Origin: Candidatus Hydrothermarchaeum profundi
Lineage (GTDB): Archaea; Hydrothermarchaeota; Hydrothermarchaeia; Hydrothermarchaeales; Hydrothermarchaeaceae
Direction of reading: 5' to 3'
Assembly: GCA_002011125.2 (NCBI GenBank)
Contig: MTMF02000009.1
Location: forward strand, 1,800,989-1,864,988
Length of the DNA: 64,000 nt
The translations under genes and the position numbers were made by a program. This document shows, piece by piece, positions 3,254-13,318 of the stretch (positions are counted from its first letter, which is position 1; each line of letters begins with the position of its first letter). The notes under the pieces were generated by a model that ran no database searches, was not told the origin of the DNA, and was given only the letters and a program-made list of their open reading frames with translations.

Positions 3254-4204
3254 ATGAAGCTTTCAGAACTCGGAGAGCGAGAAATAATAAAAATCCTCCG
3301 CAGAAACTTCGAAGAATGCGATAGAATGCTTGTGAGCATAGGGGACGATGCCAGCGTATATGACCTCGACGGCGAAAATTGCCTAGTGGTATCAATGGAT
3401 GTGATATCTCAAAAGGAACACATTCCGGTGGAGATGACGCCTAGACAGATAGGCATGTATGTGGTTAACGTTAATCTAAGCGACTTAGCTTCTATGGGTG
3501 CGCAGCCTATCGGGATTGTTACCTCCTTAGGCTTGCCAGGAGATTTGGAGGATATCTTCATAAAAGAGCTTTCTTCTGGAATAAACGAGGCATGCAGTAA
3601 GCATGGAATCTGTGTTCTAGGAGGCGACACAAAAGAAATGAGAGAGATATCCATCGCTTGTACTGCGTTAGGCATGGCTAAAAAGGGAAAGTTCCTAACT
3701 AGGAGTGGAGCAAGAGTGGGGGACCTAATATGTGTGACTGGTAAAATAGGTTCGGCTGCTGCTGGATTCTATTGCCTTATAGAGAATCTAAAGGAGGAGA
3801 GATTCATAAAGGCGGCATTAGAACCTAAAGCAAGAATAAGAGAAGGCTTACTCCTTGCCGGATATGCTAACTCCTGTATGGATATCTCAGACGGCCTTGC
3901 TTTTTCTCTCCACGAGATATCAAGAGCAAGTAAAGTTGGGTTCAAAGTATACGAGGAGAAGATTCCTATTGACCCTAGAATCCTAGATGTGGCTGAAAAG
4001 GCTGGCGTGTCATCTCGAGAGCTTATATTCCATAAGGGCGGAGATTACGAGCTTCTTTTCACAATTCCTCCAGAGAAACTCAAGGAGATAAAGCTAAATG
4101 TGAATATAATAGGTGAGGTTATCCCTGCGGGAGCTATTATTGTTAATCCGGAAGGTATGGAGGAAACTCTAAGCGATAGAGGATACGAATCATTCAAAAG
4201 TTAA
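3254..4204 (+). CDS. thiL: Thiamine-monophosphate kinase
   Basis: LGERE, IGDDA, NLSDLASMGA, GGDT, DISDGL, GGDYEL. Confidence 0.95.
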   Translation: MKLSELGEREIIKILRRNFEECDRMLVSIGDDASVYDLDGENCLVVSMDVISQKEHIPVEMTPRQIGMYVVNVNLSDLASMGAQPIGIVTSLGLPGDLEDIFIKELSSGINEACSKHGICVLGGDTKEMREISIACTALGMAKKGKFLTRSGARVGDLICVTGKIGSAAAGFYCLIENLKEERFIKAALEPKARIREGLLLAGYANSCMDISDGLAFSLHEISRASKVGFKVYEEKIPIDPRILDVAEKAGVSSRELIFHKGGDYELLFTIPPEKLKEIKLNVNIIGEVIPAGAIIVNPEGMEETLSDRGYESFKS

Positions 4205-5691
4205 GCCAATGTTTTTAACGCCTTTTCCAAGCGAGTCTCTAGCTTCTCAAGCTTAACACTTAGCTCCTTCTCAAGCTTATCCAGCTCTACCTTCTTCTTC
4301 TCTATCTCCTTCTTCTTTGGGGGTATCTGATCTTCTAGCCAGATCTTCTTAAGGGACTCTCTCGTTAAGTCTATATAGGACTTGCAGTCAGCTAAAATGT
4401 CATTAAGCTTCTCGTATGCCTTCATCTCTTCTTCCATCATCTTAAGCTTACCGTTAAGCCTTCCTATCTGCGCTACAGCCTTAGACCTCTCACGAGAGTA
4501 CTCTTTCTTTAATACCGAGTACGTGCCCTCATCGATCTTCCCCGTATCCTTTTCCCTTTCAAGAGTATCTATGAGGGTATCGAAATTCTCTGCCTTGCTC
4601 TTCGCTGCGGCTAGCTTATCCTTCACTTCTTCCATTTGTTTCTTCTTCTCTGAGATAAAGTTCTCATCCGGCAACTTTACACCTGATGCAAGGGATTCCT
4701 CCTCTATTTTCTCGAGGGAGTTTATCAGCTCCGTCAGATACTCTTTTACTTTAGAGATAAGGAAAAGCTTGCTTGACTCTATGAAGCCCAGCTCCATCTC
4801 TTTGGAGAAGATCTCGCCTTCAATTGCCTTAAGCTTTTTCTCATATTCCGCCTGTACAGTTAAGAGGTCCTCATATTTTGATACAACGTTTTTCCTTTTC
4901 TCTATCTCAGTCTTTATTTCCTCTATCCTAGCCGCGCACTTGGCCACTTCCTTTTCATATTTCTGCTTAAGGCTCTCATAGGTAGCATCGTCAACAAGTC
5001 CATCATCATGGTTCTTCTCAAGCACTTTTAAGCTTGACTCCGCAACCTGCTTCTTCATGAGCTGACTGTTCAACGAGGAGTTAAGCGAGGGTATCTCGCC
5101 TTTTATGGCTTCAACCTTAGATATAAGAGAGGGATCTACGAATCTCCTTATCTCAAGCTCTTCGGGAATATAAATCTCTTCCAGTACCTCCTCCTTAGGA
5201 GCTGCTTCCTCTACTTTGACCTCTTCGACTTCGGGAGCCGCCTCCTCTATAGCCGGGGCTTCAGAAACTTCCTCTGGCACTTCTACTGATGGAGCCTCAA
5301 CTTCAGGAGCTGCTTCTTCAGGTGCTTCCACAGCTACTGCGGCCTCTTCACCTGCCTGATCCTGTTGCCTCAGCGCTTCTTCTATCTTTTCCCTCGTCAT
5401 ACCTTTCTCGTTAACCGGTATGCCCCTCTCCCTAGCAAGCTCCCTTAGCTCATTCCACTCCATTGAGGAATAGTCTACCGGCTTTTCCTCCTTCTCCTCC
5501 ATCTCTTTCTTTATCTCAGCGATCTTAGAATCAATCTCGGTGAGCTTTTCTTCATAATCAGCAACTGAGCTATTATAGTCCTCTTCACTTATCTCCCCCT
5601 CCTCAAAAGCTCTTTTGAGTTCATTCAAAGTAGCGGTGATAACCTCCCTTTCTACCTCCAATTCAGTTAATTTATCAGAATCTTCAGCCAT
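4201..5691 (-). CDS. Long coiled-coil protein with HeH/Rho-N-like domain, acidic E/A/P linker and three G-x-I-x4-Y helical-hairpin modules
   Basis: YSSMEWNELRELARERGIPV...MTREKIEEAL resembles HeH/Rho-N; heptad-rich E/K sequence; ATG at 5691 preferred (TTG at 5706 possible). Confidence 0.65.
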   Translation of the reverse strand: MAEDSDKLTELEVEREVITATLNELKRAFEEGEISEEDYNSSVADYEEKLTEIDSKIAEIKKEMEEKEEKPVDYSSMEWNELRELARERGIPVNEKGMTREKIEEALRQQDQAGEEAAVAVEAPEEAAPEVEAPSVEVPEEVSEAPAIEEAAPEVEEVKVEEAAPKEEVLEEIYIPEELEIRRFVDPSLISKVEAIKGEIPSLNSSLNSQLMKKQVAESSLKVLEKNHDDGLVDDATYESLKQKYEKEVAKCAARIEEIKTEIEKRKNVVSKYEDLLTVQAEYEKKLKAIEGEIFSKEMELGFIESSKLFLISKVKEYLTELINSLEKIEEESLASGVKLPDENFISEKKKQMEEVKDKLAAAKSKAENFDTLIDTLEREKDTGKIDEGTYSVLKKEYSRERSKAVAQIGRLNGKLKMMEEEMKAYEKLNDILADCKSYIDLTRESLKKIWLEDQIPPKKKEIEKKKVELDKLEKELSVKLEKLETRLEKALKTLA

Positions 5692-5759
5692 AGTATCGCA
5701 CCCCAAGGTTTGACCTTTATAAATTAAATTATAAGAATATAAATAGGTTGTGGTTTTTA

Positions 5760-6716
5760 TTATCGCTGAGCTTGAGAGTCCAGTTGCTCAAGTTCTTCCA
5801 AATATTTCCTTTTTAAGTCCTTATATACATCCTCGAGTATTAGCCCCCGCTCGTAGTACTCAAATAACCTATTAAGAGCCGTTTCTATAACCTTCTTCTT
5901 TGCAAGAATTTCATCAGATCCAACTTCAACTCTGATCTCTACTTCTTCCTCGCTTGGAGCTTTTATTTTAAGCTTTTTTAAGGCTTTAGAAGTTTTTTCA
6001 ATTATACCTTCACGGAGTTCCTCGCCTAATAAATCCGCCGCCAGTTTTTTGTAACTTTTACTCGCTGGAGAATTAGGTGAAAGCTGTAAAACGCTTACCC
6101 CCTTGTTCACTGCTTCTATAACCCTAGGATCATAAGGGATAACAGACGCCACGGGTTGAGCCAGAGTAGCCTCTACTGCGCTCTTCTCAAGCTCCCCTTT
6201 ACTTCCGCGCACTTTATTCAAGATCACCCTTATTTTGAGTTCATTTTCTCTCGCGGCTTTAATGAGCTTGTATACTGTTGTAACTGACAGACGATCTGGC
6301 TCTGTAATTACTAAAAGCTCATCTGACGCCTTCATCACGTCCTCGTCCACACCAGTACATGAGTCTATGAGGATAAAATCATATTTCTTTAAGAGAAACT
6401 GAATTTTCTCCCCCAGCTTAGCCTTACGACTAGTCGCTTCATTCATTAGGTACCCCAATATTAGGTCCATTTTTTCATTAAGCTGGTAGATCGCTTCTTC
6501 GATGGGAATTTTATCTTCAAGAGCATCTCGAAGAGTCAGAGGAGGATGAGGCAGATTAAAGCATAACCCAAGGTTTGGAGCCTCCAAATTTCCATCAACC
6601 GCTAGAATACGCCTGCCGAAAACTGAAGACATGGCAAAAGCCAGATTAGCTACGAAGACGGTTTTACCTGCTCCTCCTTTAGAGGATACAACCCCAACTA
6701 CCTTTCCCTCAAGCAT
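5760..6716 (-). CDS. MinD/ParA-family ATPase with C-terminal helical-hairpin extension
   Basis: Deviant Walker A KGGAGKT, ILIDS, ILNKV, IPYDP..EA..G. Confidence 0.85.
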   Translation of the reverse strand: MLEGKVVGVVSSKGGAGKTVFVANLAFAMSSVFGRRILAVDGNLEAPNLGLCFNLPHPPLTLRDALEDKIPIEEAIYQLNEKMDLILGYLMNEATSRKAKLGEKIQFLLKKYDFILIDSCTGVDEDVMKASDELLVITEPDRLSVTTVYKLIKAARENELKIRVILNKVRGSKGELEKSAVEATLAQPVASVIPYDPRVIEAVNKGVSVLQLSPNSPASKSYKKLAADLLGEELREGIIEKTSKALKKLKIKAPSEEEVEIRVEVGSDEILAKKKVIETALNRLFEYYERGLILEDVYKDLKRKYLEELEQLDSQAQR

Positions 6717-6754
6717 TAAGCTTTTTATATGATACTATTAGGATATATAGGTTG

Positions 6755-7393
6755 ATGTATTGTAGAAGCTGCGGCGAGTATATTGAAGAAGGATGGAGAT
6801 ACTGCCCCAACTGCGGAGCGAAGATAGAGAAGGGAGTAGACATACTGGAGAGGTTCCCGAGCTTCTCACAGTTCGGCTCTCTCTTCAGAGACATAGAAGA
6901 AGAGTTCAGACGCATAGAGGAAATGTTCCGTAGCAGTTTTGGCGATTTTGAGAGGGAATTTGAGCCTCCAAGGGATCTATTTAAAAAGCCCTTCAAGGGA
7001 GGTGGAGTAAGTATTAGAATAACATCAGAGACGGGAAAAGAGCCAAAAATAGAGGTAAGGACCTTTGGTGACTATAAGGACCAAGAGCCCGAGATATTGA
7101 GAAGGTTCGGAATTGAGGAGCCGCGTAATAAGCGAGAGCGACCTAAGCCAAAGGTGACCGAAGAGCCTCAGACCGAAATGAAGAGGATAGAGGATAAGCT
7201 CATTGTTAAAATCAAGGTGCCGGGGGTTGAGTCCGAGGACGATGTAGAGCTGCGAAGAATGGAGGAATCTATTGAAGTTAAAGCATACGCTAAAGATAAA
7301 GCATATTTCACCCTTTTTACTGTGCCGCCAGGCTATAGGGTACTTTCAAAAAGGCTGGAGAATGGAGAGCTTATTTTAGAGTTAGGCGAGTAA
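6755..7393 (+). CDS. Small heat-shock protein (Hsp20/alpha-crystallin-like) with N-terminal zinc ribbon
   Basis: CRSCG..CPNCG; EEP...VKIKVPGV, ENGELILEL alpha-crystallin-like C-terminus; next to dnaK cluster. Confidence 0.8.
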   Translation: MYCRSCGEYIEEGWRYCPNCGAKIEKGVDILERFPSFSQFGSLFRDIEEEFRRIEEMFRSSFGDFEREFEPPRDLFKKPFKGGGVSIRITSETGKEPKIEVRTFGDYKDQEPEILRRFGIEEPRNKRERPKPKVTEEPQTEMKRIEDKLIVKIKVPGVESEDDVELRRMEESIEVKAYAKDKAYFTLFTVPPGYRVLSKRLENGELILELGE

Positions 7394-7646
7394 ATTTCGA
7401 AGAAAACCTTAAAAGAAGCTGAGAAATAAAAATAGAGTAGTGAATCCAGCTGATAAGCGTTTTGGAGGTTCATATTATTCCCAGGATAATCCTAGAGCTT
7501 GAGAGCCTCAGTAACTTTGCTTTCTATGATATTTTTTATAACATTAAACTCATTCTTACGAGATGATGGGAAGAACTACCAAAGCTGAGAAAAGAGTAAA
7601 GAAATTTCTAGAATTTTCTAGATTAATCATGGAGAACGTGAAGAAG

Positions 7647-7910
7647 TCAAGTGCATCCAGAAAGTCTAGTCGCCCCAATCGATAGGTCATAATTCTTGAA
7701 TCGGTATGTATCCTGCCTTATAACTTGTTTCAAAGTATGGTTTAACTCGAAATCTTTAATCCATTTACATAAGTATTTTAAATCTAATTCATTTAAAGTG
7801 GCTAGAGCTAAAATGTCGATCTTATCCTGATAGTTCTCCTTTATCATTATCCTAAATAATTTGCTAATAATTATATCCTCAGGTATAGCGACCTCACAAG
7901 CATTCCGAAT
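7647..7910 (-). pseudogene. Remnant of a nucleotidyltransferase (AbiEii/DUF6036-like) gene
   Basis: Frame reads ...CEVAIPEDIIISKLF...YQDKIDILAL, the PEDxIxxKL/DxxDI C-terminal motif, with no intact N-terminus; AT-rich. Confidence 0.45.
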
Positions 7911-7975
7911 ATTCTCTTATTTTTAGCGTTTTTTAAAAAGCAGCCTACATGCATTTTATGGGAAATAAGATATTT

Positions 7976-7990
7976 CTAACCTTTTGTTAT
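7976..7990 (+). promoter_or_regulatory. Candidate heat-shock repressor operator CTAAC-N5-GTTAT upstream of grpE
   Basis: One mismatch to the Archaeoglobus HSR1 palindrome CTAAC-N5-GTTAG; adjacent to an AT-rich TATA-like stretch. Confidence 0.45.
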
Positions 7991-8046
7991 TAAAATATTT
8001 TATCTCGTTAGATAGATTTGGTGATAATGACTTCTTGGTGATATTT

Positions 8047-8595
8047 ATGAGTAAACAGAAGAAGGATTCCAAAAGTAAAACTACTGCTCAGAAGGTACGA
8101 CCATCGGATAAAAAATCTCTAGAAAAGGAAATAGAGAAGATAAAGGCAAAACTCGAGGAAACCGAAAAAGCGGCAGAGGATTATCTAACTAAACTGAAAT
8201 ACCTGCAGGCAGAGTTTGAGAACTACAAAAAGATGGCTGACAGAGAAAGAGAAAAGATTATTCAATACGCTAACGAAGAACTTATAATAAAGCTCCTAGA
8301 TGTCTATGAGAACCTGGAAAGAGCCCTTGAAAGCGGGAAAAAATCCAACAACAAGGAAGCATTAATGAAAGGTGTCGAAATCACATATAACCAGCTTAAA
8401 GACATCCTCGAAAGAGAGGGCCTCAAGCCCATAAAAACGGTGGGAGAGAAGTTCGATCCATTCAAGCATGAAGCTGTAATGAAGGAGAATAAGGAGGACT
8501 GTGAGGAGGACATAATCTTAGAGGAATTTCAGAGGGGCTATATGTTGAAGGATAAAGTTATCCGATACTCAAAAGTCAAGGTTTGTAAGAGGTGA
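8047..8595 (+). CDS. grpE: Nucleotide exchange factor GrpE
   Basis: [26 protein letters not shown]; GGTGA SD before ATG 8047. Confidence 0.95.
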
Positions 8596-8600
8596 TGATT

Positions 8601-10460
8601 ATGGCTGAGAAAAAAGAAAAGATAATAGGCATAGATTTAGGAACAAGTAACTCTGCCGCCGCAGTAATGATAGGTGGTAAACCTACTATAATCCCCAGCG
8701 CTGAAGGCGCTACCCTTTATGGTAAAGCTTTCCCCTCGGTCGTAGCTTTCACTAAAGATGGACAGATATTAGTAGGCGAGCCAGCAAGAAGACAAGCAGC
8801 TACTAACCCTGAGGGAACAATTATGGCCGCAAAGAGAAAGATGGGGACGGACTATAAGTTCAAGGTATTTGGAAAAGAATACACTCCCCAAGAGATTTCT
8901 GCATTCATCCTTCAGAAGATAAAGAGAGATTCAGAGGAATTCCTCGGAGAACCGGTAAAGAAAGCCGTGATAACTGTGCCAGCATACTTCAATGATAACC
9001 AGCGCCAGGCCACTAAAGATGCTGGCAGAATAGCGGGTCTAGATGTGGTTAGGATAATTAACGAGCCTACTGCAGCTGCATTGGCATATGGACTAGATAA
9101 ATCTGGAGAAGAGCTAAAAATAATGGTCTTCGACTTTGGAGGCGGGACTCTTGACGTGACGATAATGGAATTTGGAGAGGGCGTATTCGAGGTAAAATCA
9201 ACAAGCGGTGATACGCAGCTCGGTGGAACAGATATGGACATCGCATTGATGAACTATATAGCTGATGAATTCAAAAAAGAAACCGGGATCGACTTAAGAA
9301 ACGATGACACCGCAATGCAACGCCTTAGAGAAGCAGCCGAGAAGGCAAAAATAGAACTCTCTACGTTAGTGGAGACCGATATAAATCTACCATTTATAGC
9401 GGCAGATGAAAAAGGCCCGAAACACCTCCAAATGAAGCTCACAAGAGCTAAGCTCGAGGAACTCGTCAGACCCGTGGTCGAAAAATGCGGCAAGTCTATT
9501 CAAAGAGCCTTAGAAGACGCTAAACTCAAGCCAGAAGACATCAACAAAGTGATACTAGTAGGCGGGCCAACTAGGATGCCTATCGTTAGAGAATACGTGA
9601 AGAACTTTGTAGGAAAAGAGCCTGAAAGAGGTATCGATCCTATGGAATGCGTAGCCATAGGCGCTGCAATACAAGGCGCTGTTTTAGCCGGAGAGATTAA
9701 AGATATCCTACTGCTCGATGTCACCCCCTTATCACTAGGAATAGAGACTCTTGGAGGAGTATTCACGAAATTAATAGAGAGGAATACCACTATACCAGTT
9801 AAAAAGAGCCAGATATTCACTACAGCTGCAGATAACCAAACATCCGTAGAGATCCATGTCCTACAGGGAGAGAGACCAATGGCGGCAGATAATGTTTCGC
9901 TAGGACGCTTTCAATTAGTAGGTATCCCTCCGGCTCCGAGAGGCGTACCGCAAATCGAGGTAACCTTCGATATCGATGCCAACGGTATTCTAAACGTCTC
10001 CGCGAAGGACTTAGCTACAGGCAAGGAGCAGAAGATAACGATAACAGCCCCCCATAAGCTCTCTGAGGAGGAAATAAAGAAGAAAATAGAGGAGGCACAG
10101 AAATACGCAGAGGAAGATAAGAAGAGGAGAGAGGAGGCTGAACTACGGAATGAGGCTGACTCTCTCATATATACCTCAGAAAAAACTATCCAAGAACTTG
10201 GAGATAAGGTTCCATCTGATGTAAAGGAAAGAGTCGAAAAAGCAGTTAACGCTTTAAAGGAATCGCTGAAGGGCAAGGATATCGCGGATATCAAATCCAA
10301 GATTGAAGAGCTTAGGAAAGCGGTGCAAGAAATTGGCACTAGGGTCTACCAGCAAGCACAGGCACAGGCAGGCAGTGATAGCAAGAAAGACGAAGAAGGG
10401 AAAGAAAAGGAGAAGGTCGTAGATGCGGATTATGAAGTCGTCGATAAAGATAAGAAGTGA
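8601..10460 (+). CDS. dnaK: Chaperone DnaK (Hsp70)
   Basis: [34 protein letters not shown]; short (Gram-positive/archaeal-type) subdomain IB; GAGGTGA SD. Confidence 0.98.
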
Positions 10461-11605
10461 AGGCGATGACAGCCAAAAAGGACTACTATGAAATCCTTGG
10501 GGTGCCTAGAAATGCTTCAAAAGAAGAGATCAAGAAAGCCTATCGAAGACTAGCTTTGAAATATCATCCTGACCGTAATAAATCTCCTGACGCTGAAGAG
10601 AAGTTTAAGGAGATCTCTGAGGCCTACGGAGTGCTTAGCGACGATGCTAAAAGAGCACAGTATGACAGATGGGGCCATGCCGGCATAGAGGGCAGATATA
10701 CGGCTGAGGACATATTTAGATCTATCAATTTCGATGATATTTTCGGTGACCTTGGATTCGACTTCGGATTTGACAGCATCTTTGACATGTTCTTTGGCAG
10801 AAGAAGATCCCAGAGAACAGGTCCAAGGAAAGGAGCTGACCTTAGGACTGACATAGAGATAACCCTCGAAGAGGCTTACCGAGGAGTAGAAACAACTGTG
10901 ACATATCCTCGATTAGAGAAATGCGGAGAATGTAATGGAAGCGGAGCTGAACCAGGAACAAGCCCTATAACCTGTCCTAACTGTGGTGGAAGCGGTCAAA
11001 CTAGTTACACAAAGAGAACCCCCTTCGGCCATTTCACTAGCGTAAGCACATGCGGAAGATGTGGAGGTAAAGGTACAATCATTGAAAAGCCGTGCAGAGA
11101 ATGCAAAGGATCAGGTGTAGTCCAGAGGAAGAGAAAAGTGCTGGTAAAGATACCTCCAGGAGTAGATGAGGGGTCAAGACTGAGAATCCCTGGAGAAGGT
11201 GAGGTAGGGGAAAATGGAGGCCCACCAGGCGATCTCTATGTAGTAGTGCATATAAAGCCCCACAAATTCTTCATTAGAGAAGGAGATGATATCCTCTGCG
11301 AGATTCCAATAACATTCAGCCAAGCAGCATTAGGGACCACTATAGAGGTTCCTACACTTGACGGCAAGGCAAAGCTTAAGATCCCTTCAGGAACACAGTC
11401 GGGGACAATTTTCAGGCTGAGAGGGAAAGGTATGCCCAGCTTAAAAGGATACGGCAGAGGCGACCAGCATGTTAGAGTGATCGTTAAAACACCAACAAAA
11501 CTTACAAGAAAGCAGAGAGAACTCTTCGAAGAACTTGCTAAAATCGAGAATGATCAGGGGATAATCTCTAGGGTGATAAATGCATTCACCAGCCCAAGGA
11601 GTTAA
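10457..11605 (+). CDS. dnaJ: Chaperone DnaJ
   Basis: HPD motif, four CxxCxGxG repeats, GDLYV; start may be ATG 10466. Confidence 0.98.
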
Positions 11606-11653
11606 GATTAATATTTATCATTAAATAAAAATCTAATAGGAGGTGCAGGAAAA

Positions 11654-13318
11654 ATGGCTGCACAAATGGGAGGACAACCGGTATATATACTGCAGGAGGG
11701 TACCCAAAGATTTACTGGTAGAGATGCGAGAAGGATGAATATAACAGCCGGTAAAGTAGTGGCCGAAGCCGTGAAAAGCACCTTGGGACCAAAAGGTATG
11801 GATAAAATGCTTGTAGACTCCTCGGGGGACATTCTTATAACCAACGACGGCGCGGCCATACTGAAGGAGGTCGAAGTTAAACACCCTGCAGCCAAGATGA
11901 TGGTAGAGATAGCTAAGACTGTGGAAACCGAGGTAGGCGATGGGACAACTAGCTCAGTCGTATTAGCAGGCGAACTTCTAAAGAAGGCTGAGGACCTGCT
12001 AGATCAAGACATCCATGCCACAGTGATAGCGAGAGGTTACAGGATGGCGGAAGAAGAGGGGGTAAATATCCTTTCAAAAATCAGCAAAAAAGTAGACCCT
12101 GCAGACGAGGCTATACTAGAGAAAGTTGCTTTAACAGCATTGAACTCAAAAGCGTCAGGAATAACTGCACGTGAGCATCTAGCGAAGCTAGCGGTACAAG
12201 CTGTGAAGAAAGTTGCGGAGAAAAGTGATGGAACCTTTAATGTGGATAAAGCAAACATCAAGATTCAAAAAGTTGTAGGAGGGTCTACCCGCGACTCAGA
12301 GTTGGTTGAAGGTATAGTGATAGACAAAGAAATAGCTCACTCCGGCATGCCTAGAGTAGTGAAGAACGCGAAAATAGCTATTCTAAATACCGAGCTGAAA
12401 GTCAAGAAGACTGAGACGGATGCAAAGTTCAATATTACCTCGCCTGAGCAGGTTAAGAAGTTCATGGACGAGGAAGAGGAGACTGTCAAGAATATGGTAA
12501 AGGCAATAGCAGCTACAGGGGCTAACTGCGTGCTATGCCAGAAAGATATAGAGGTTCTAGCCCAGTATTACCTAGCGAAGGAGAACATACTAGCGGTCAA
12601 GAGTATAAGCGAGAAAGATATAAAGCTTATATCCAGAGCTACCGGAGGAAAAATAATCACCAATATCAAGGACATATCCTCCAAGGACCTAGGAAAAGCA
12701 GGCAAAGTAGAGGGGAAGAAAATCGGGGGTAAAGAATTCGTGTTCATAGAGGACTGTGAGAATCCAAAGGCCCTAACAGTGCTCTTGAAGGGCGGCTCAG
12801 AGCATGTCGTTGACGAATCAGAGAGGAGCATGGATGATGCTATAAGCGTGGTTAAAGATGTTGCCGAAGACGGTACTGTGCTGCCAGGTGGAGGAGCTGC
12901 GCTAATGGAGGTTTCAATGCGCTTGAAAGACTTTTCAAATACGATTAGCGGCAGAGAACAGCTAGCCGTCTTAGAGTTCGCTAACGCCTTAGAGAAGATA
13001 CCAAGGACTATCGCCGAGAATGCAGGACTAGATCCGATAGACACTATTATCGCCCTGCGAGCTTCCCATGAGAAGGGAGGACTAGAGGAGGGTATAGACC
13101 TAGCTACAGGAGAACCTAGAAACATGTACGAGCTAGGCATCGTTGAGCCAGGGAAAATGGTCAAGCAGGTCATAAGGTCTGCTACCGAAGCTGCTATAAT
13201 GATACTGCGGATAGATGATGTCATCGCTGCAAAAGGCAGCCTAGGAGAAGAAGAGGAAGAAAAAAAGGAGTCAGAACTCCCGAAAGGGCGTAAGAGACCA
13301 CAGATGCCTTCCTACTAA
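11654..13318 (+). CDS. ths: Thermosome (group II chaperonin) subunit
   Basis: TLGPKGMDKML, ITNDGA, GDGTTS, ILRIDDVI; GGAGGTG SD. Confidence 0.97.
   Translation: MAAQMGGQPVYILQEGTQRFTGRDARRMNITAGKVVAEAVKSTLGPKGMDKMLVDSSGDILITNDGAAILKEVEVKHPAAKMMVEIAKTVETEVGDGTTSSVVLAGELLKKAEDLLDQDIHATVIARGYRMAEEEGVNILSKISKKVDPADEAILEKVALTALNSKASGITAREHLAKLAVQAVKKVAEKSDGTFNVDKANIKIQKVVGGSTRDSELVEGIVIDKEIAHSGMPRVVKNAKIAILNTELKVKKTETDAKFNITSPEQVKKFMDEEEETVKNMVKAIAATGANCVLCQKDIEVLAQYYLAKENILAVKSISEKDIKLISRATGGKIITNIKDISSKDLGKAGKVEGKKIGGKEFVFIEDCENPKALTVLLKGGSEHVVDESERSMDDAISVVKDVAEDGTVLPGGGAALMEVSMRLKDFSNTISGREQLAVLEFANALEKIPRTIAENAGLDPIDTIIALRASHEKGGLEEGIDLATGEPRNMYELGIVEPGKMVKQVIRSATEAAIMILRIDDVIAAKGSLGEEEEEKKESELPKGRKRPQMPSY

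Follow-up and report, generated by a model that had tools for sequence, protein, structure and literature searches.

Two neighbouring, co-oriented genes in a 64,000-nucleotide stretch of the genome of Candidatus Hydrothermarchaeum profundi (contig MTMF02000009.1, positions 1,800,989 to 1,864,988; this whole stretch is called the window here, and coordinates without a prefix refer to it) encode proteins that have a short helical hairpin in common. Both lie on the minus strand. The first (5760-6716, identified from the open reading frame (ORF) call and Pfam) specifies an archaeal MinD-family ATPase of 318 amino acid residues (aa) with a C-terminal extension (P0001, here called MinD-a), and the second, downstream of it (4201-5691, from the ORF call, the protein-database form and an AlphaFold2 (AF2) model), specifies an all-helical protein of 496 aa with a net charge of -43 (P0003, here called the partner). 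Judged from sequence comparisons, the C-terminal tail of MinD-a is homologous to three hairpins in the partner, and within the source genome (G000; a 2.19-Mb assembly of 19 contigs, 97.65% complete) those hairpins are its closest relatives. The interpretation that we favour, and to which we would assign a probability of roughly 40%, is that the locus encodes a lineage-restricted ATPase-adaptor pair of the ParA/MinD type, in which the tethered hairpin of the ATPase would form a bundle with a hairpin of the partner, while a helix-extended loop-helix (HeH) domain in the partner would provide an optional link to nucleic acid.

A hairpin module common to the ATPase and its neighbour

A preliminary description of this DNA, made by reading the letters and translations only, had pointed out that the end of the ATPase resembles the start of the next gene, and that this gene carries two further copies of the same segment. 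All four of the peptide stretches that it quoted are indeed present in the translations; the first resemblance is found in agreement by BLASTP, hidden Markov model (HMM) and hhalign comparisons, and the two further copies are recovered as hairpins 2 and 3 of the partner both by an HMM of the tails and by hhalign. In the simplest of these comparisons, BLASTP aligns MinD-a residues 271-309 with partner residues 216-254 (38% identity, E 3e-4) and MinD-a residues 269-315 with partner residues 15-61 (34% identity, E 0.002).

Profile searches give a fuller picture. An HMM was built from 18 partner hairpins (three from each of six orthologues, which align without gaps), with no ATPase sequence included, and was run against the 11,799 six-frame ORFs of at least 50 aa in G000. 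The partner itself came first (7e-53), followed by a second MinD, here called MinD-b (1.4e-9), with MinD-a third (5.3e-6); the further matches were to a 1,968-aa ORF (9e-5; G000:C9:1085290-1091193, minus strand) and a CcmF-like cytochrome c assembly protein of 824 aa (6e-4; L049:52-2526, minus strand), both of which end in the module, and to three small membrane proteins (0.003-0.02). The reverse search, using an HMM of 11 MinD tails, found all three hairpins of the partner, most strongly hairpin 2 (1.1e-17, 63 bits), then hairpin 1 (4.3e-10) and hairpin 3 (6.2e-5), the partner scoring 63 bits where the best of the remaining non-MinD proteins in the genome scores 27. On a much larger scale, a profile of the partner reaches five tail-bearing MinDs, at E values of 2e-7 to 1e-4, among 1.84 billion proteins; a word-indexed search with the tail alone returned only the query itself.

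The significance of the hairpin alignment had been set beforehand as a test of the resemblance, and profile-profile comparison using hhalign gives a clear result for each of the three hairpins: the tails align with hairpin 2 at 99.2% (E 2.9e-19, over 68 columns), with hairpin 1 at 96.2% and with hairpin 3 at 95.8% (E 8.1e-9). The partner hairpins are less alike among themselves (86-95%) than the tails are to hairpin 2. A conserved glycine at the turn is invariant in the six tails that were aligned. No repeat was found at the DNA level between the MinD-a tail and the partner hairpins, implying that the likeness is old and has been preserved as protein only; recent duplication or gene conversion between tail and hairpins is ruled out on the same ground.

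As to what kind of module this is, the sequence comparisons place it as SHOCT-like, and it is not filed here as a member of SHOCT itself, because its Pfam scores recur but stay below the cutoff. Against the SHOCT model (PF09851, cutoff 27 bits) hairpin 1 reaches 20.0 bits, with 18.5 bits for the tail of MinD-b, and partner orthologues give E values of 0.0013-0.015, also below threshold, while the MinD-a tail matches neither SHOCT nor any other Pfam family at E ≤ 1. The end of the Pfam GvpG model likewise matches hairpin 1 below threshold (24.6 bits). A resemblance to SHOCT and CdvA had been proposed in the preliminary description, and part of this stands: the two helices and the glycine turn support a SHOCT-like character, to which an hhalign value of 88.4% (E 2.8e-6, 29 columns) for the tails against three bona fide SHOCT domains of G000, a reference alignment of only three sequences, may add. 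Both Pfam cutoffs are missed, the coiled coil of CdvA (PF18822) scoring only 15.6-18.5 bits, in the partner as in its orthologues, against a gathering threshold of 30. Compared with the same three-sequence reference, hairpins 1, 2 and 3 give 90.4%, 67.9% and 14.4% respectively. The three bona fide domains come from tandem genes for small membrane proteins, each of which ends in SHOCT at 36.8-40.9 bits (L048:163-1083, plus strand; G000:C9:730562-731479).

The module has features in common with SHOCT and with the bi-helical domains treated in parts of a 2024 comparative study (PMC11237479), being a short two-helix unit with a glycine at the turn and no insertions or deletions, located mostly at the ends of proteins and found in many architectures. 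It differs from SHOCT in that the homologous unit is longer here (57-68 aligned columns), and in that two copies in the partner serve as turns within long helical hairpins. Passages of the original SHOCT paper proposed oligomerisation or nucleic-acid binding as the function of that domain (PMC3581485).

The two proteins and their relatives

That the ATPase is MinD-like, as had been supposed, is borne out by sequence comparison. In Pfam it matches CbiA (3.2e-17), AAA_31 and ParA, all above their cutoffs; its best NCBIfam model is TIGR01969 (minD_arch; 158.6 bits, E 1.6e-46, below the cutoff of 201.75); and the solved structures closest to it are archaeal MinDs, namely 1g3q (7.4e-31), 1ion (7.4e-28) and 1hyq (9.3e-23), the first of which is matched at 2.4e-58 by a profile of the clade of tail-bearing MinDs. 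In an AF2 model calculated from an 11-sequence alignment (mean predicted local distance difference test (pLDDT) 83.7, predicted TM-score (pTM) 0.71) the core is confidently predicted and is followed by a helix of low confidence and then by disorder up to residue 266. The core itself (residues 1-232; 6021-6716, minus strand; delimited by high pLDDT and alignment) has the sequence SSKGGAGKT, which fits the deviant Walker A P-loop KGGxGK[ST] with its signature lysine. Its Walker A' motif is DGN (codons 41-43; 6588-6596), where solved MinDs have D-x-D: N43 aligns with aspartate in 1g3q, 1ion, 1hyq and 4v03, and with alanine in the mutant 4v02. The aspartate at this position we take to be catalytic, from what is generally held for MinD and Soj, and its replacement by asparagine suggests that ATP hydrolysis would be slow or would depend on a partner. 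MinD-a thus resembles the archaeal MinDs of TIGR01969 and of these structures in its deviant Walker A motif and in its nearest relatives, but it differs from them in falling below the NCBIfam cutoff and in having asparagine for the presumed catalytic residue.

The core is followed by a short amphipathic helix (residues 236-251; 5964-6011, minus strand; from sequence, hydrophobic moment and AF2), which in MinD-a has no aromatic residue and a hydrophobic moment of 0.58, and of which AF2 predicts residues 238-248 as helix at low confidence. In its relatives the helix directly after the core, a feature of the tail-bearing clade, is amphipathic, aromatic and basic, and by its composition resembles a membrane-targeting sequence. 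Then come a disordered acidic linker (residues 252-266; 5919-5963, minus strand; pLDDT below 50 over 238-265) and the C-terminal SHOCT-like hairpin (residues 267-317; 5766-5918, minus strand; from AF2, HMM and hhalign), for which AF2 predicts helices at 267-289 and 295-317 with pLDDT values of 87-94.

Ten ORFs of G000 contain a KGGxGK[ST] loop, and just two of them, MinD-a and MinD-b, have the hairpin tail. In a tree of 16 ATPase cores (from which P0034, with an odd N-terminus, a truncated protein from G023 and three distant G000 paralogues were excluded) the 11 tail-bearing MinDs form one clade (support 97/94), apart from five other G000 paralogues; within it, MinD-a groups in a subclade (99/99) with P0059 and with the MinD that adjoins a partner gene in G003, a genome of the same family and another genus. 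Both members of this subclade whose gene context can be read adjoin the partner. The aspartate-to-asparagine change is general in the clade (DGN in 10 of the 11 tail-bearing MinDs, the protein from G019 having aspartate), and D-x-D is kept in six of the eight other Walker A ORFs of G000.

MinD-b has conserved gene neighbours of its own. Upstream of it lies a gene for a membrane-anchored beta-propeller protein in G000, G003 and G011 (the G001 locus holding only the end of an ORF there), and downstream a sensor histidine kinase in G000, G003 and G001, followed in G000 by a response regulator as well. The beta-propeller proteins (WD40/PQQ-type; entries for MinD-b and the propeller at L013:9130-10794, L017:2252-3637, L018:1796-3226 and L030:2568-3143, all minus strand) have a cytoplasmic tail that in G003, G001 and G011 contains repeats of a motif, basic and amphipathic, of the type YRKEKINLLKSLKKEV, with only a weaker single copy in G000. 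For MinD-b, the beta-propeller protein is a candidate either as cargo or as partner.

A further member of the tail clade, in G023 (L004:544-1674, minus strand), lacks its 5' end, where the contig stops; it has a DSN motif and the same post-core helix, and the place of the hairpin is taken by an HeH, followed by an acidic linker and then a helix-hairpin-helix (HHH_5, E 0.0036, below cutoff). Directly after it comes a coiled-coil ORF (L004:3-515, minus strand), itself cut by the contig end. Read from sequence as a "Rosetta stone", this fusion is a hint, and the best independent one, that MinDs of the tail clade may work with HeH-bearing partners.

The partner begins with a free-standing hairpin 1 (residues 2-68; 5488-5688, minus strand; AF2 helices 2-30 and 36-68), which is strongly acidic (net charge about -13 to -15 in this protein, and -6 to -14 in all 12 family members). 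Next is the HeH, of SAP/Rho_N type (residues 72-120; 5332-5478, minus strand; AF2 helices 79-88 and 100-120), and then a disordered linker rich in Glu, Ala, Pro and Val (residues 121-180; 5152-5331, minus strand; charge -23; pLDDT below 50 over 117-174). The remainder (residues 181-496; 4204-5151, minus strand) is a conserved C-terminal domain, the core of the family, in which AF2 predicts five long helices (187-229, 235-336, 343-383, 388-450 and 453-495, with pLDDT values that mostly exceed 90). Within it, the tail HMM and hhalign locate hairpin 2 at residues of about 196-270 (4882-5106, minus strand; turn 230-234) and hairpin 3 at about 350-420 (4432-4644, minus strand; turn 384-387). The model as a whole, calculated from a six-sequence alignment, has a mean pLDDT of 81.9 and a pTM of 0.42.

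Searches with the partner beyond its own family yielded very little. It reaches the cutoff of no family in Pfam or NCBIfam, and the same scans found no ribbon-helix-helix (RHH), helix-turn-helix (HTH) or ParB-like domain in it; the preliminary description's contention that the system is unlike ParAB, SegAB and MinCDE accordingly holds as far as this second component is concerned. Foldseek returned no match in the PDB at E ≤ 0.001, a search of PDB sequences with the partner profile gave nothing below E 0.26, the ESM Atlas offered no usable match, and a wide VIA-align search found generic helical hairpins and coiled coils at Z ≤ 11.4, under the level of about 13 for helical models. PADLOC gave only weak coiled-coil matches (LmuB, E 4e-4), none of them credible.

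The HeH requires separate comment. None of the Pfam models SAP, Rho_N and HeH matches it at E ≤ 0.1 in the partner or at E ≤ 1 in five orthologues, and its class is nevertheless settled by transitive homology, because proteins matched by the partner profile pass the cutoffs of these models: among ten such HeH-region matches that were scanned, P0016, P0017, P0023, P0026 and P0028 lie above the SAP cutoff, the Rho_N cutoff or both, and P0026 above that of HeH also. Together with the helix-loop-helix and the disordered linker predicted by AF2, this confirms the earlier observation of an HeH/Rho-N-like domain on an acidic linker. The domain has a net charge of -3 in this partner, with values from -9 to +4 among orthologues, and in seven of nine carriers it is acidic (-1 to -9). 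An HeH 48% identical to that of the partner also ends the Lys/Glu-rich C-terminal extension of ribosomal protein uS3 in G000 (contig C9, outside the window; L032:865-1800, plus strand), which has KH_2 and Ribosomal_S3_C above cutoff.

The partner family is small. A word-indexed search recovered six proteins among 5.77 billion, and an exhaustive profile search of 1.84 billion representatives gave 98 matches at E ≤ 0.001, 16 at ≤ 1e-10 and nine at ≤ 1e-30, the last being eight near-full-length proteins and one fragment, in clusters of one or two members. Most of the 98 cover only profile positions of about 60-140, that is, the HeH region, and none of them, with no limit set on length, is a fusion of a MinD with the partner. 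The C-terminal helical domain is present in all 12 family sequences and hairpin 1 in 11. Two relatives are named in the databases as "HslVU peptidase subunit" (P0004) and "chromosome segregation ATPase" (P0011); neither domain appears in Pfam scans, and these names look like misannotations driven by coiled coils.

Among the genomes searched, the sequence evidence confines the partner to the uncultured phylum Hydrothermarchaeota, where a full-length copy occurs in three of 38 genomes (G000, G003 and G011); the same three are the only ones among 401 archaeal genomes. A full-length copy is found only in genomes that also have a tail-bearing MinD, in three of the five phylum genomes where such a MinD was verified and in none of the 33 others, although these genomes are kin and so are not independent. 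In G003 (62% complete) a 394-aa tail-bearing MinD lies directly upstream of the partner gene, co-oriented with it, the partner gene being cut by contig ends. When co-occurrence and synteny were checked, adjacency therefore stood in two of the three partner genomes, G000 and G003, but not in G011 (another family, 81% complete), where the ORF upstream of the partner is one of 224 aa. Metagenome scans found no further contigs with partner homologues, the contig scan giving only the G011 locus, which means that the synteny rests on three genomes. A closely related strain shows this locus too, and part of a partner gene that is more distant was seen as well, neither constituting independent evidence of synteny.

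How the pair might work, and competing explanations

No description of this gene pair was found in the literature on Hydrothermarchaeota and MinD or on archaeal MinD, ParA and SegB, paper supplements aside, and analogies must be sought elsewhere. In the PomXYZ and McdAB systems the gene for a ParA/MinD ATPase adjoins that for an adaptor, helical or disordered, with no homology to ParB, MinE or MinC, and the adaptor touches the ATPase dimer through a short peptide at its N-terminus, which is usually basic. By analogy, MinD-a and the partner would work most like a ParA/MinD ATPase with such a non-ParB adaptor: the likeness to these systems, on general descriptions of them, lies in a helical partner that is not ParB, and the difference in the strongly acidic N-terminus of the partner and in a candidate contact that is a module found in both proteins. 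SegAB and HpaAB are similar in being two-gene archaeal operons of the ParA family with a lineage-specific second gene; according to passages of PMC13722703, SegB and HpaB are small RHH DNA binders, whereas the partner is a helical, acidic protein of 496 aa in which no RHH was found, and the ATPase is MinD-like. The arrangement is also unlike MinCDE, MinD-a having the helical partner as its neighbour; there is no MinC or MinE among the neighbours at the locus (ThiL-like protein, partner and Zn-ribbon/Hsp20-like protein), the rest of the genome not having been searched for them. For MinD-a itself the nearest archaeal parallel is MinD4 of Haloferax volcanii, as partially described in bioRxiv 10.1101/2020.04.03.021790, with its flexible acidic C-terminal extension and two-helix end element, the comparison being with that description; in contrast to MinD4, MinD-a has an amphipathic helix right after the core, and its end element is a SHOCT-like hairpin common to the neighbouring gene.

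The favoured reading starts from the homology of the module, the folds, the structure of the clade, the rarity of the partner, the partial synteny and the G023 fusion. To these it adds steps that are conditional. The ATP-bound MinD-a dimer would hold or position the helical partner, an elongated adaptor or scaffold, through its tethered hairpin, which may pack on one partner hairpin to form a small helical bundle. If the aspartate-to-asparagine change does make turnover of ATP slow, MinD-a would presumably act as a switch or tether rather than as a fast oscillator, and the HeH would be an optional addition to the partner, perhaps linking the complex to nucleic acid or to some other HeH-binding structure. 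The confident AF2 prediction of both hairpins, each on a flexible linker, speaks in favour of this scheme; binding, slow hydrolysis, association with a membrane and the cargo are the parts of it that we infer. A more specific version, that ATPase and adaptor recognise each other through their homologous SHOCT-like hairpins on flexible tethers, and that the asparagine-containing ATPase is a slow tether placing the scaffold (and in some lineages nucleic acid, via the HeH) at the membrane, would be a new way of coupling such an ATPase to its adaptor, and must be considered unlikely.

A number of observations weigh against the idea of an ATPase-adaptor pair or weaken the interpretation given in the preliminary description, and are best taken together. 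The hairpin is not private to MinD-a and the partner, as it is found also in MinD-b, the CcmF-like protein, the giant ORF and other membrane proteins, and a profile of six tails matches 46 of 301 archaeal genomes at E ≤ 1e-4; among eight of those matched loci that were read, the sole one within the phylum (G019) is a 442-aa tail-bearing MinD, and the seven outside it encode membrane proteins, a protein with a bPH domain and a stand-alone protein of 75 aa, with no MinD among them. On the evidence of the tree, the tail predates the pairing, since MinD-a is a derived paralogue inside a clade that already bears it, and MinD-a sits on a long branch (1.21). MinD-b, of 357 aa, carries the tail in a conserved neighbourhood of its own that includes no helical partner. 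In G011 the contig with the partner (C10) has no match to MinD-a, the only tail-bearing MinD of that genome lying on C47 beside the beta-propeller gene. It is possible, from the sequence of the spacer, that the partner has a promoter separate from that of MinD-a. In the family of 12 the HeH is intact in eight sequences, degenerate in one (P0009) and absent from three (P0012-P0014); missing or degenerate in four and otherwise mostly acidic, it makes for a weak link to DNA, and the "nucleic-acid-binding scaffold" of the preliminary description is accordingly doubtful for a protein with so variable an HeH and so large a negative charge. Finally, as related in passages of PMC3581485, the only published oligomerisation test of a SHOCT domain was negative, and those parts of PMC11237479 that deal with SHOCT-like domains predict that they anchor to the inner leaflet of the membrane.

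The strongest competing explanation, which we regard as possible though somewhat unlikely, is that the hairpin is a general SHOCT-like module serving recruitment to the inner face of the membrane, or self-association, of each protein that carries it. MinD-a and the partner would then share it through module shuffling and, if they cooperate at all, would do so through a common surface or through some other contact than hairpin against hairpin, for example a partner peptide bound to the dimer of the ATPase, in the manner of ParB, MinE or McdB. Consistent with this are several membrane proteins, in G000 and in other archaea, whose cytoplasmic ends bear the same module, the 88.4% profile-profile similarity of the tails to the three bona fide SHOCT domains, and MinD-b, which has the tail without the partner; moreover, a C-terminal membrane element is normal in MinDs. 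The membrane anchoring predicted for SHOCT-like domains in parts of PMC11237479 would fit too, as would Haloferax MinD4, for which the portions of the bioRxiv preprint concerned describe an acidic extension and a conserved two-helix element of about 40 residues. Set against this, hairpin 1, with a charge of -6 to -14, would be a poor binder of anionic membranes; the tail-bearing MinDs already possess, distinct from the hairpin, an aromatic and basic amphipathic helix that follows the core; and the tail is far nearer to the partner hairpins (63 bits) than to the copies in membrane proteins (27 bits at most).

That the two genes are simply neighbours without a shared function, their adjacency having arisen once in one family and the module reflecting common descent of a mobile mini-domain, is in our judgement decidedly unlikely. 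Only one family (that of G000 and G003) shows the adjacency, the genes being unlinked in G011, the partner may have its own promoter and the module is promiscuous; but the MinD-a subclade is distinct (99/99) with both of its context-readable members beside the partner, no other non-MinD protein of the genome comes as close to the tail as the partner does, and a fusion of a MinD with an HeH exists in G023. Least probable is the stronger reading in the preliminary description, a ParAB-like system for chromosome or plasmid segregation in which MinD-a would move a partner bound to DNA through its HeH: the HeH does belong to the SAP/Rho_N/HeH class, a related MinD is fused to HeH and helix-hairpin-helix, both known nucleic-acid-binding motifs, and archaeal ParA-like operons with unrelated adaptors exist (HpaAB, from passages of PMC13722703), but four of 12 family members have no intact HeH and seven of nine carriers have an acidic one, the whole partner is at -43 and has no RHH, HTH or ParB-like domain that Pfam or NCBIfam could find, a similar HeH at the end of uS3 means that an HeH need not imply DNA, and the ATPase is MinD-like rather than ParA-like.

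Should the hairpins of MinD-a and the partner prove to dock on one another, a widespread module that has had no function assigned to it would acquire its first concrete role, that of heterotypic docking, and the working of at least some SHOCT-like domains would be explained; adaptor recognition by ParA/MinD ATPases would gain a third mode, in addition to basic N-terminal peptides and helices of the MinE type. If docking does not occur, what is left is a promiscuous mini-domain present in two adjoining genes of a single archaeal family. Many MinD paralogues exist in archaea, most of them with no known cargo or partner, and MinD-a at least gains a candidate for its partner and for the contact surface, a contact that could be tested using small purified fragments even though the host is uncultured.

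Gene boundaries and flanking genes

The partner ORF as called extends over 4201-5706, and its start is most likely the ATG at 5691, which yields the 496-aa form found in the protein database; a Shine-Dalgarno-like motif, GGGGTG, lies 7 nt upstream of this codon. The 68-nt spacer between the two genes (5692-5759, minus strand), as read from the sequence, is A+T-rich and contains, besides this motif, the TATA-like, box-like stretch TTTATAT. A scan for bacterial-type promoters and terminators gave nothing above shuffled controls, archaeal promoters being outside its range.

On both sides the pair is flanked by genes on the plus strand, a convergent one for a ThiL-like AIRS protein (3254-4204) and a divergent one for a Zn-ribbon/Hsp20-like protein (6752-7393). 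The latter is the first gene of what appears to be a heat-shock cluster (6752-13318), divergent from MinD-a, which opens with this Zn-ribbon protein with an Hsp20-like end and continues with GrpE-, DnaK- and DnaJ-like and thermosome-like ORFs. The Zn-ribbon protein is identified from Pfam and NCBIfam scans, the names of the other ORFs being taken from reading of the translations only.

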